IMG/VR virus record: IMGVR_UViG_2671180609_000014
Length of the DNA: 11,469 nucleotides
Direction: 5' to 3' (one strand)
Origin: a virus
Lineage: Duplodnaviria > Heunggongvirae > Uroviricota > Caudoviricetes
Numbering within the stretch: the first letter of the stretch is position 1; every line of letters begins with the position of its first letter. A model generated the notes under the pieces. The model searched no databases. It saw nothing but the letters and a program-made list of their open reading frames with translations, and was not told the DNA's origin. Positions 9,881-11,057 of this stretch are shown in pieces. The position numbers and the translations under genes are program-made.

Positions 9881-10109
9881 CGCGAGTGCGTGTAACTTTT
9901 GATGTCATTCCCGTAGAAACACCGGACAAATTTTCGCTGACAGGTCATGCAGAAGGTATAAATCTGCAGATTATGGACAATTACGGATATCCGGCAAGAG
10001 CCGGAAAAAGCATGCCGCCTCTAATTCTCAGTGGAAGATGGACTTGATTATACTCATTGCATTGTCAGAAATAGTTATCCATTAAAGGCTGGCTATTCCA
10101 AACAGGATG

Positions 10110-10131
10110 TTGATTACAAAAATGTAATCAA
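10110..10131. promoter_or_regulatory. Perfect 9-bp inverted repeat (TTGATTACA-aaaa-TGTAATCAA), candidate operator upstream of the binding-protein gene
   Basis: Seen directly at 10110-10131, about 30 bp upstream of an exact TATAAT hexamer (10161-10166) in the AT-rich leader of the 10299 gene. Confidence 0.4.
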
Positions 10132-10298
10132 CATGTAAGGTTTATACTCTTCAATATGCGTATAATTTTCCTTATTTTGTTGACTTTAAATAACAAGCTA
10201 TGCACGAGGTAAAGTCGGATAAGTTTATCTGGATGTAATATATATTATTTGTAGTGTTTATAACTTTATTTCATGATAACCAATAAAAGGAGTTTTTT

Positions 10299-11057
10299 AT
10301 GAGGAACATAATGGCAGGTTTTTTAATATTCCTGTCTTCTGCTGCTTATGCTGATATCAATCTGTATGGTCCTGGTGGCCCGCATACAGCCTTGCTTGAT
10401 GCAGCCAAACTTTATGCCGAAAAAACAGGTATTATAGTGAACGTTCATTACGGCCCACAGAACAAATGGAATGAAGATGCCAAAAAAAATGCAGATATCT
10501 TGTTTGGCGCATCAGAACAATCTGCTCTGGCTATCATTCGGGACCATAAAGACAGCTTCAGTGAAAAAGATATTCAGCCTCTTTATCTGCGAAAAAGTAT
10601 TTTACTGGTAAAGAAAGGTAATCCTAAAAATATCCGGAGTATTGACGACCTGACCAGACCTGGGATTGGCGTAATTGTTAATGATGGTGGTGGTACCAGT
10701 AATACATCAGGCACTGGCGTCTGGGAAGATATTGCCGGACGTAAAGGGAATATAGAAACTGTCGCCGCAATCCGAAAAAATATTATTTTATATGCGCCCA
10801 ATAGCGGAACTGCACGTAAGGCTCTTGAGAATCAGCCTGGAGCAGATGTCTGGATAACCTGGGCTGACTGGGCAGCCAGTAATCCAGAAATTGGTGATGT
10901 CGTGGAAATAGCGCCAGACTACGTGATATGGCGTGATATGAACATTACAGTACGTCAGGATGCAAATGATGAAACCCGTCGATTTGCAGAATGGCTACAA
11001 ACCGATGAAGCGGCGCCTGCATTCAAAAAATATGGCTGGACCAGGAAAGGCACTTGA
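10299..11057 (+). CDS. Periplasmic substrate-binding protein, ModA-like type 2 PBP fold, with signal peptide; no transporter partner genes in the window
   Basis: AAGGAG 6 nt upstream of ATG 10299. N-terminal MRNIMAGFLIFLSSAAYA is a signal peptide. The mature part (NLYGPGGPHTALLDAAKLYAEKTGIIVNVHYGP...NADILFGASEQ...LLVKKGNPK...FAEWLQTDEAAPAFKKYGW) follows the layout of E. coli ModA (TVFAAASL...PADLFISADQKW...AFYDYLKGPQAAEIFKRYGF) as I recall it. Confidence 0.85.
   Translation: MRNIMAGFLIFLSSAAYADINLYGPGGPHTALLDAAKLYAEKTGIIVNVHYGPQNKWNEDAKKNADILFGASEQSALAIIRDHKDSFSEKDIQPLYLRKSILLVKKGNPKNIRSIDDLTRPGIGVIVNDGGGTSNTSGTGVWEDIAGRKGNIETVAAIRKNIILYAPNSGTARKALENQPGADVWITWADWAASNPEIGDVVEIAPDYVIWRDMNITVRQDANDETRRFAEWLQTDEAAPAFKKYGWTRKGT

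Follow-up and report, generated by a model that had tools for sequence, protein, structure and literature searches.

The window analysed here, the whole 11,469-nucleotide (nt) stretch of DNA from the tailed-virus record IMGVR_UViG_2671180609_000014, carries close to its right end an open reading frame (ORF) for a 252-residue protein, which runs along the plus strand from an ATG at 10299 to a TGA at 11055-11057. A Shine-Dalgarno sequence, AAGGAG (10287-10292, plus strand), can be read 6 nt upstream of the ATG, and the next gene is a hok toxin gene. We identify the ORF as paa, the porcine attaching-and-effacing-associated gene, which is also adfO and Z2053, and describe it as an AcfC/PEB3-family cargo cassette of a lambdoid prophage of the O-island 57/CP-933O type located beside ompW; we put the probability of this reading at about 0.9. 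A preliminary description, made from the letters of the window without database searches, had presented the ORF as an orphan binding protein. It is a gene that has already been described and is not novel.

The identification rests on both the DNA and its product. From position 9400 to the end of the window (2,070 nt) the DNA is 100% identical to many Escherichia coli O157:H7 chromosomes, and at least 80% of this stretch is present in 573 of 5,426 complete E. coli genomes. The product matches RefSeq WP_001449026.1, 'AcfC family adhesin Paa', with 100% identity, hokD is the next gene in the O157:H7 annotation, and phage records name the element PPompW and the gene 'Paa/adherence factor'. In the literature, adfO is z2053 of O-island 57 (OI-57), is similar to Paa of porcine enteropathogenic E. 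coli (EPEC), and is constantly accompanied by ckf (z2054), the hok homologue (PMC8565820); going by the references listed in the same paper, paa/adfO was described in 2003 and 2008. The gene also serves as a polymerase chain reaction (PCR) marker in the risk typing of E. coli that produces Shiga toxin (STEC) (PMC4366395) and in porcine EPEC genomics (PMC2749873). This literature and the routine use of the gene as a marker mean that it was already known, and comparison with Paa of porcine EPEC O45 and AdfO of EDL933 reveals the same gene, the same prophage beside ompW and the same hokD/ckf neighbour, with no difference at the gene level (PMC8565820, PMC2749873). In the identical O157 record the prophage is ordered as integrase (beside ompW), repressor, cro, replication genes, paa, hokD, Q region, lysis and terminase. 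With the integrase and ompW to its left and the lysis and terminase genes to its right, paa lies well within the prophage. The gene is thus prophage-borne, as originally proposed, and the alternative that it is a conserved chromosomal gene beyond the prophage boundary does not hold.

The presence of an export signal, also part of the preliminary description, is borne out. The N-terminus of Paa consists of a Sec-type signal peptide, MRNIMAGFLIFLSSAAYA (residues 1-18), followed by DINLYG. The signal carries a single basic residue and a hydrophobic core, and A-Y-A occupies the three positions before Asp19. The junction A-x-A/D-(I/V)-N-L-Y-G is common to the homologues. The alignment of the crystallised PEB3 and AcfC chains to Paa begins at residues 16-19, and disorder in an AlphaFold2 model of Paa is confined to residues 1-16. 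There is no Cys in the signal, and so Paa is not a lipoprotein. The protein is predicted to be Sec-exported and non-lipidated, with a mass of ~26 kDa and a putative signal peptidase I site.

Paa belongs to the AcfC/PEB3/Paa family of binding proteins. The Pfam model SBP_bac_11 (PF13531) matches with 118.3 bits against a gathering cut-off of 25 (5.5e-34), covering profile positions 1-226 of 227. The best hits in a sequence search of the PDB are Campylobacter jejuni PEB3 (1.2e-81) and Vibrio cholerae AcfC (3.5e-81), which align from Paa residue 11 or 16 to residue 248 and hence over the whole mature protein; sulfate-binding proteins rank next, at ~1e-4. Identity to AcfC and PEB3 is 52-53%, and to a V. 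cholerae homologue 53%. The AlphaFold2 model, which was built on 12 homologues and has a predicted local distance difference test score (pLDDT) of 88.6, is matched by Foldseek to AcfC (4jb7) with a template-modelling score of 0.90 normalised to the query (TMq) and 0.97 normalised to the target (TMt), a root-mean-square deviation of 1.1 Å and 52% identity, and to PEB3 (3fj7) with a TMq of 0.88. On the basis of this model, Paa is predicted to have the two-lobe fold of the class II periplasmic binding proteins in the form found in the AcfC/PEB3/Paa family. An alignment of 12 homologues with 51-92% identity, drawn from Escherichia, Salmonella, Raoultella, Edwardsiella, Enterobacter, Aeromonas, Francisella, Vibrio, Helicobacter and Campylobacter, contains the motifs GPGGPH, ADIL-G-S-QSA, G-G-SNTSGTGVWED--GR, PNSG-A and D-W-TW-DW--NP in invariant form (12/12). 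These family-invariant motifs line the cleft between the lobes where, by analogy with the structures of the relatives, they would contact the ligand. In the crystallised relatives the cleft is occupied by small anionic ligands; the crystal entries contain L-phospholactate (3fj7) and D-aspartate (4jb7).

The preliminary description had assigned a ModA fold to the protein, which stands at the level of the fold but not at that of the family. The next tier of Foldseek matches is formed by ModA (1wod, TMq 0.71) and Sbp (1sbp, TMq 0.70), and SBP_bac_11 is compatible with such a fold; the ModA models, by contrast, score below their cut-offs (TIGR01256, 18.3 bits against 62.5; other ModA models, 11.7-17.7 against 253-470). 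The Sbp/CysP models TIGR00971, PRK10752 and PRK10852 likewise reach 19.0-22.6 bits against cut-offs of 155.5-308, through a local match of 40-50 residues at the SNTSGTG loop. Membership of the ModA, WtpA, TupA or sulfate-binding protein families is therefore excluded by NCBIfam scores far under the cut-offs, the fold alone being common. Paa shares with ModA and Sbp/CysP the class II two-lobe fold, the Pfam clan (Foldseek TMq 0.70-0.72) and the local similarity at the SNTSGTG loop, but these proteins are only 14-20% identical to it, and they are encoded with, or serve, a defined ATP-binding cassette (ABC) permease and ATPase, whereas paa has no such association.

The closer relatives resemble Paa in more than fold. 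AcfC (4jb7) has the same invariant cleft motifs, is also exported, and also has no dedicated transporter. The genetic settings differ, acfC being part of the Vibrio pathogenicity island, where it follows the chemoreceptor-like acfB and is under ToxR/ToxT control, with a product reported not to mediate adhesion to cells (PMC5976639), whereas paa stands alone as a cassette and its leader is unrelated. PEB3 (2hxw, 3fj7, 3fjg) is ~53% identical to Paa with the same fold and motifs, and is likewise a colonisation factor (PMC12469816). Lys135 of PEB3 is a Thr in Paa. The glycosylation sequon of PEB3, which we take to be DFNVS, is missing from the aligned segment of Paa. PEB3 is N-glycosylated in Campylobacter, to go by the title of reference 20 in PMC5976639, and peb3 is repressed by BumR (PMC12469816).

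The window contains no permease or ATPase gene, in agreement with the preliminary description, and neither is there one within 12 kb on either side in the identical O157:H7 record, which disposes of the possibility that a complete transporter is encoded just outside the window. modB and modC in particular are missing from the window, from the 12 kb on either side, and from the surroundings of the homologues. None of the eight contexts that we examined contains a linked permease or ATPase gene, and where ABC systems are adjacent they are complete with their own binding proteins. This is the case for the Edwardsiella and Enterobacter homologues, which adjoin such systems after long intergenic gaps. 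The homologue in Aeromonas (Logan SRR25820356; locus L009, 6001-6774; 54% identity) is cargo of a P2-like prophage, in which it is positioned between the gpA replication gene and ogr, and represents a second, independent phage capture of the AcfC/PEB3/Paa family. The Salmonella homologue is on an IncFII plasmid, and the chromosomal homologue of E. albertii (locus L012, 6001-6762; 87% identity) is inside the N-acetylgalactosamine (aga) phosphotransferase system cluster. From the occurrence of lone genes in all of the homologue contexts it follows that the transporter-less, lone and mobile state is a trait of the AcfC/PEB3/Paa family, and not peculiar to this window.

Some further neighbours of the homologues may be coincidental. 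In Enterobacter bugandensis (locus L007) the gene adjoins an EvgS/EvgA-like hybrid kinase and a GerE-type response regulator, and in Raoultella planticola (locus L008) it adjoins remnants of a type 2 secretion system (PulS-like, GspL_C). The latter are worth recording in view of the first report of AdfO, which came in a paper on type 2 secretion (Ho 2008, judging by the title cited in PMC8565820).

The limits of the paa cassette can be placed by comparison with plasmids. Alleles of paa that share 86-89% identity with the window occur on IncF and IncI plasmids from porcine, bovine and other E. coli, and alignments to three independent plasmids start at 10095, 10100 or 10105 and end at 11117; the flanks beyond these limits are related neither to each other nor to the window. 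The cassette (~10098-11117, plus strand), a mobile unit, consists of leader, gene, terminator-like hairpin and terminal hairpin. The intrinsic-terminator-like hairpin (11061-11089, plus strand), detected by a terminator scan, has the core CGTCC-TTCA-GGACG at 11064-11077 and the T-run TTTTT at 11085-11089, and its stem and T-run are kept in the plasmid alleles. The second hairpin, ATGCCGC-GCCA-GCGGCAT (11094-11111), lies at the right end of the cassette and is kept in all plasmid alleles. Copies related to this right-end hairpin (11094-11117) are also found in 539 places on E. coli plasmids, and once, in inverted orientation, on pSTEC388_3 (locus L003, 2856-2879).

At its left end the cassette abuts a remnant of a papH-like gene for a fimbrial minor subunit (9633-10097, plus strand), which is truncated at its 3' end and, as three-frame translation confirms, frameshifted and interrupted by internal stops. 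An intact relative of 588 nt and 86% DNA identity occupies the papH position, preceding the usher gene, in a pap-like operon of the pig strain PI24 (locus L013, 4931-5518); the homology to it ends at 10097, 38 nt short of the stop codon of the intact gene. This end point, together with the starts of the plasmid alignments, places the fimbrial/paa junction at ~10098 and an inverted repeat of the leader, described below, within the cassette. In RefSeq, 9605-10138 is given as a 'fimbrial protein' pseudogene with frameshifts, and this annotation exceeds the true homology by ~40 nt, running into the paa cassette and taking in the palindrome. On these limits the palindrome could have been regarded as coding sequence at the 3' end of the pseudogene, an explanation that we reject on the grounds that the homology stops at 10097 and that the palindrome is also found in plasmid cassettes without the fimbrial fragment.

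The position that the cassette occupies in the prophage is a variable one. A related enterotoxigenic E. coli (ETEC) prophage without paa has the same left flank up to position 9607 and the same hok module from 11204, with a DUF4406 gene and two hypothetical genes in between. The presence of other cargo between the same flanks identifies the region as a variable cargo slot, with the phage replication genes on one side and the hok/sok module on the other. Lambdoid phages are known to carry autonomous cargo genes, or 'morons', such as bor and lom of lambda. The paa cassette has moron-like traits in that it comprises one gene, preceded by a leader of its own and followed by a terminator-like hairpin, deviates in base composition, and is inserted between conserved phage modules. 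It is unlike the lambda morons in that the activity of its promoter in the lysogen is inferred and in that the identical cassette also circulates on plasmids. We propose that paa constitutes an autonomous one-gene cargo cassette of ~1.0 kb, equipped with its own AT-rich leader, ribosome-binding site and terminator-like hairpin. The same cassette travels on the IncF and IncI plasmids of porcine and bovine E. coli.

The paa leader (10048-10298) has a G+C content of 27.9%, compared with 43.9% for the ORF and 47.5% for the window, in line with its earlier characterisation as AT-rich. A perfect palindrome reported in the preliminary description is present, with arms longer than were then noted: a repeat search returns ATGTTGATTACA-AAAA-TGTAATCAACAT (arms 10107-10118 and 10123-10134), with a 12+4+12 arrangement in which 12/12 positions are complementary and the core ATTACA-AAAA-TGTAAT corresponds to 10113-10128. 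First-order Markov resampling leads one to expect 0.003 perfect inverted repeats with 12-nt arms per window, and 0.002 in the leader. As RNA the palindrome would form a hairpin of -15.1 kcal/mol (z -4.9). It is nevertheless unlikely to be an intrinsic terminator for upstream transcription, the hairpin being stable but AT-rich, lacking a T-run, and missed by the terminator scan. The palindrome is 27-54 nt upstream of an exact TATAAT (10161-10166, plus strand), already pointed out in the preliminary description, which is a candidate -10 element.

To assess which parts of the leader are conserved we use ten leaders, representing about five lineages with 71-85% identity between lineages over 10113-10298. 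The longest invariant run is the 15-nt CAAAAATGTAATCAA (10117-10131), which comprises the loop and right arm of the palindrome (P ~0.008 at the observed invariant fraction). Also invariant in all ten leaders are GTAAGGT (10135-10141, plus strand, 7 nt), directly 3' of the palindrome; the TATAAT; and the 9-nt ATAAAAGGA (10283-10291), the ribosome-binding site block. A lone TATAAT is unremarkable in DNA of 28% G+C, and the noteworthy feature is its invariance across ten diverged alleles. GTAAGGT is located at about the position of a -35 site for the TATAAT and is unlike TTGACA. In the left arm, the inner six bases alone are conserved (ATTACA, or ATTGCA in one allele), so that ATTACA-N4-TGTAAT is kept in 9/10 leaders; the arms measure 12 nt in O157, 10 nt in pSTEC388_3 and 9 nt in pZ1323, all in one clade, and 6 nt in the other clade, that of pCFS3246-1, pE105-3 and relatives. 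On one plasmid an IS21 element abuts the sequence exactly at CATTACA. The asymmetry of this constraint means that the perfect 12-nt symmetry of O157 is not itself the conserved feature, which is instead the 6-4-6 core with its right flank. Overall, we read an element of ~25-30 nt at the 5' edge of the cassette as being under constraint. The conserved ATTACA-AAAA-TGTAATCAA-N3-GTAAGGT, ~30-50 nt upstream of the TATAAT, is most likely part of the paa promoter or regulatory region.

The preliminary description went further in calling the palindrome an operator, to which a dimeric regulator would bind and thereby control transcription of paa. The perfect 12+4+12 symmetry is far beyond chance, the site precedes an invariant TATAAT by 27-54 nt, its loop and right arm are the best-conserved stretch of the leader, and the core is kept in nine of the ten alleles. 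A related block, AATGACAAAAATGTAATCCTTATGTAAGGTT, is moreover found on pE105-3 (locus L005, 2118-2147), ~200 nt upstream of a DUF305 gene that precedes paa; the block of ~30 nt is all that the two leaders have in common, the similarity of the whole paa and DUF305 leaders being not above that of shuffled sequences (score 73; mean 53, maximum 81). An operator is difficult to reconcile with the conservation pattern, since a dimer site should constrain both arms, whereas the outer left arm varies and the right arm is invariant. It is also difficult to reconcile with the distribution of the site: a 40-nt palindrome query is found once per genome, at paa only, in 608 of 5,426 E. coli genomes, with no second copy in any of them. 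The 18-base version TTGATTACA-N4-TGTAATCAA yields 45 scattered matches among 185,579 species representatives, in unrelated phyla and with none in enterobacteria, which we judge to be at chance level. Single occurrence in E. coli and chance-level matches elsewhere mean that no regulon is visible, and exclude the palindrome as a dispersed repeat or a regulon-wide operator. The palindrome is likewise missing from the more distant orthologues (Salmonella plasmid, E. albertii chromosome, Raoultella, Edwardsiella and Enterobacter), the leaders of which are unrelated to that of paa. We know of no convincing match to the operators of Fur, ArgR, TyrR, CRP, PurR or GntR, to PhoB/PhoP boxes, to ArcA sites, or to the 7-2-7 repeat of EvgA; the palindrome has an EvgA-like TACA..TGTA core, with what we take to be the wrong spacing. 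Taking these points together, a dimer-bound operator is a possibility that we regard as having rather less than an even chance.

Two further observations concern these leaders. The DUF305 gene and a gene for a 354-residue hypothetical protein are located directly upstream of paa on both pE105-3 and pSTEC299_1, and similar copies of the block occur on E. albertii plasmids. The leader of the E. albertii chromosomal homologue, unrelated to that of E. coli paa, is similar to that of the Salmonella plasmid allele.

To the right of the cassette the window contains a hok/sok toxin-antitoxin module with its full leader (11204-11469, plus strand), in which the coding sequence of hok (hokD, which is ckf or Z2054) starts at 11394 and runs off the window. 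The Rfam sok model matches 11246-11395 with 103.9 bits, and a 277-nt hok leader with this full sok match intervenes between the paa cassette and hok. The module is intact, and is a neighbour of paa rather than part of it. The preliminary description correctly stated that hokD is the third gene of relB-relE-hokD in the Qin prophage of K-12 and that relBE is missing here; there is no relB or relE in the window, nor within 12 kb on either side in the identical O157 record. Its further proposal, that paa occupies the place of relBE, holds in part. In K-12 Qin the corresponding slot contains ydfV, relB and relE followed by hokD, and paa is thus in the same variable slot upstream of hok. The positions are not exactly the same, however, because the full hok leader with sok is present here and homology to K-12 starts only at 11379, 15 nt before the hok ATG; in K-12, where relBE takes the place of the leader, hokD shares no more than these last 15 nt. 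A second perfect palindrome, CCGATATGGGAATTCCCATATCGG (11177-11200), with 12-nt arms and no spacer, ends 4 nt to the left of 11204, and both cargo-module boundaries in this stretch therefore carry perfect palindromes with 12-nt arms. Elsewhere in the window, 104 N (masked) at 1147-1250 fall within a large minus-strand ORF (1131-3437) that is the prophage exonuclease gene in the identical O157 record, and the identical record in RefSeq annotates the YdaT-family gene downstream of cro (6654-7205) as frameshifted, which would fit a prophage in partial decay.

The preliminary description suggested that the protein could act outside uptake, which fits the adherence and colonisation roles that the literature gives to the family (PMC8565820, PMC2749873, PMC5976639). 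An adfO mutant adheres poorly to HeLa cells, according to the primary study as it is cited in PMC8565820, and paa/adfO mutants give fewer attaching-effacing lesions and less cell adherence, as reported through citations of Batisson 2003 and Ho 2008 (PMC2749873, PMC8565820). In contents of the bovine rumen and rectum the gene of EDL933 is induced, a result discussed under chemotaxis by the paper that reports it (PMC8524897). AcfC of V. cholerae has a periplasmic location, binds mucin as well as sulfated glycosaminoglycans in enzyme-linked immunosorbent assays, and affects chemotaxis to mucin and intestinal distribution but not adhesion to Caco-2 or HT-29 cells (PMC5976639). PEB3 is described as a carrier for phosphorylated metabolites and is required for colonisation of chicks (PMC12469816). 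In the mechanism that we favour, Paa would bind a small anionic, sulfated or phosphorylated ligand in its cleft and would thereby promote colonisation. The effect on adherence might come about through a direct surface adhesin, through a ligand sensor, or through an accessory binding protein for a chromosomal importer. Several points weigh against the picture of paa as a self-contained adherence cassette. A scan for consensus promoters detects no -35/-10 pair for sigma-70 at the TATAAT; the designation as an adhesin is based on mutant phenotypes as these are cited in PMC8565820 and PMC2749873; and the periplasmic location of AcfC and its lack of a role in adhesion (PMC5976639) weaken a direct-adhesin mechanism for the family.

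The fold of Paa and its invariant cleft loop are typical of anion binding proteins, and its specific though weak matches to sulfate-binding proteins (NCBIfam, 6e-5; SubI and 1sbp in the PDB) and the small ligands in the crystals of its relatives (3fj7, 4jb7) are what would be expected if Paa were an accessory binding protein that passes a small anionic nutrient, such as a metabolite in sulfated or phosphorylated form, to an ABC importer whose genes lie elsewhere on the chromosome, the colonisation phenotype then being metabolic. There is precedent for one permease serving two binding proteins, in Sbp and CysP on CysUWA and in HisJ and ArgT on HisQMP. Since no linked permease or ATPase gene occurs in the eight contexts, no partner transporter is named in the cited literature, and the gene moves alone, in an Aeromonas phage, on IncF plasmids and in a lambdoid phage, in a manner hard to square with dependence on a specific permease, we consider this explanation somewhat unlikely. 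Slightly more doubtful is that Paa is not an adhesin but senses a ligand in the periplasm and thereby biases chemotaxis or signalling in the direction of host mucus, the role suggested for AcfC of V. cholerae. The binding of mucin and glycans by AcfC and its effect on mucin chemotaxis, without a role in cell adhesion (PMC5976639), argue for such a sensor, as do the 53% identity of Paa to a V. cholerae homologue, the superposition of its model on AcfC at 1.1 Å, and the induction of the gene in bovine rumen and rectum contents in a chemotaxis context (PMC8524897). Against it, acfC is in an operon with the chemoreceptor-like acfB (PMC5976639) whereas no chemoreceptor gene is found beside paa in any context examined, and paa/adfO mutants are described, in the studies cited by PMC8565820 and PMC2749873, as defective in adherence with cultured cells and explants.

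The suggestion in the preliminary description that the protein might exclude incoming phages or occupy their receptor finds no support. Protection of the lysogen against other phages, or sequestration of a ligand, has in its favour only that Paa is prophage cargo expressed apart from the lytic genes and has a homologue as cargo of the Aeromonas P2-like prophage. Such a function is highly improbable, given that there is no PADLOC match, that the PHROG family has no assigned function, that the cassette is equally at home on plasmids and chromosomes, and that the published phenotypes concern host colonisation. A more far-reaching proposal joins the leader to the protein: CAAAAATGTAATCAA-N3-GTAAGGT, with its 6-4-6 palindromic core, would be the site of a regulator that switches on paa and the similarly marked DUF305 operon of related plasmids in the gut, and Paa would sense or carry an anionic ligand of host origin in the periplasm and would not be a true adhesin. 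We offer this proposal as a speculative one that is more probably wrong than right by a good distance.

Our analysis adds to the annotation of paa the sharp limits of the cassette that are common to its prophage and plasmid copies, the over-extension of the fimbrial pseudogene, the truncated papH-like neighbour, and the asymmetric conservation of the leader. The loop and right half of the palindrome are the most conserved non-coding sequence of the locus and provide a defined probe in the search for a paa regulator. paa/adfO is used as a molecular marker of risk in both Shiga-toxin-producing and porcine pathogenic E. coli (PMC4366395, PMC2749873), and, if the sensor or carrier reading were true, the 'adhesin' label of this widely used STEC risk marker would be wrong.

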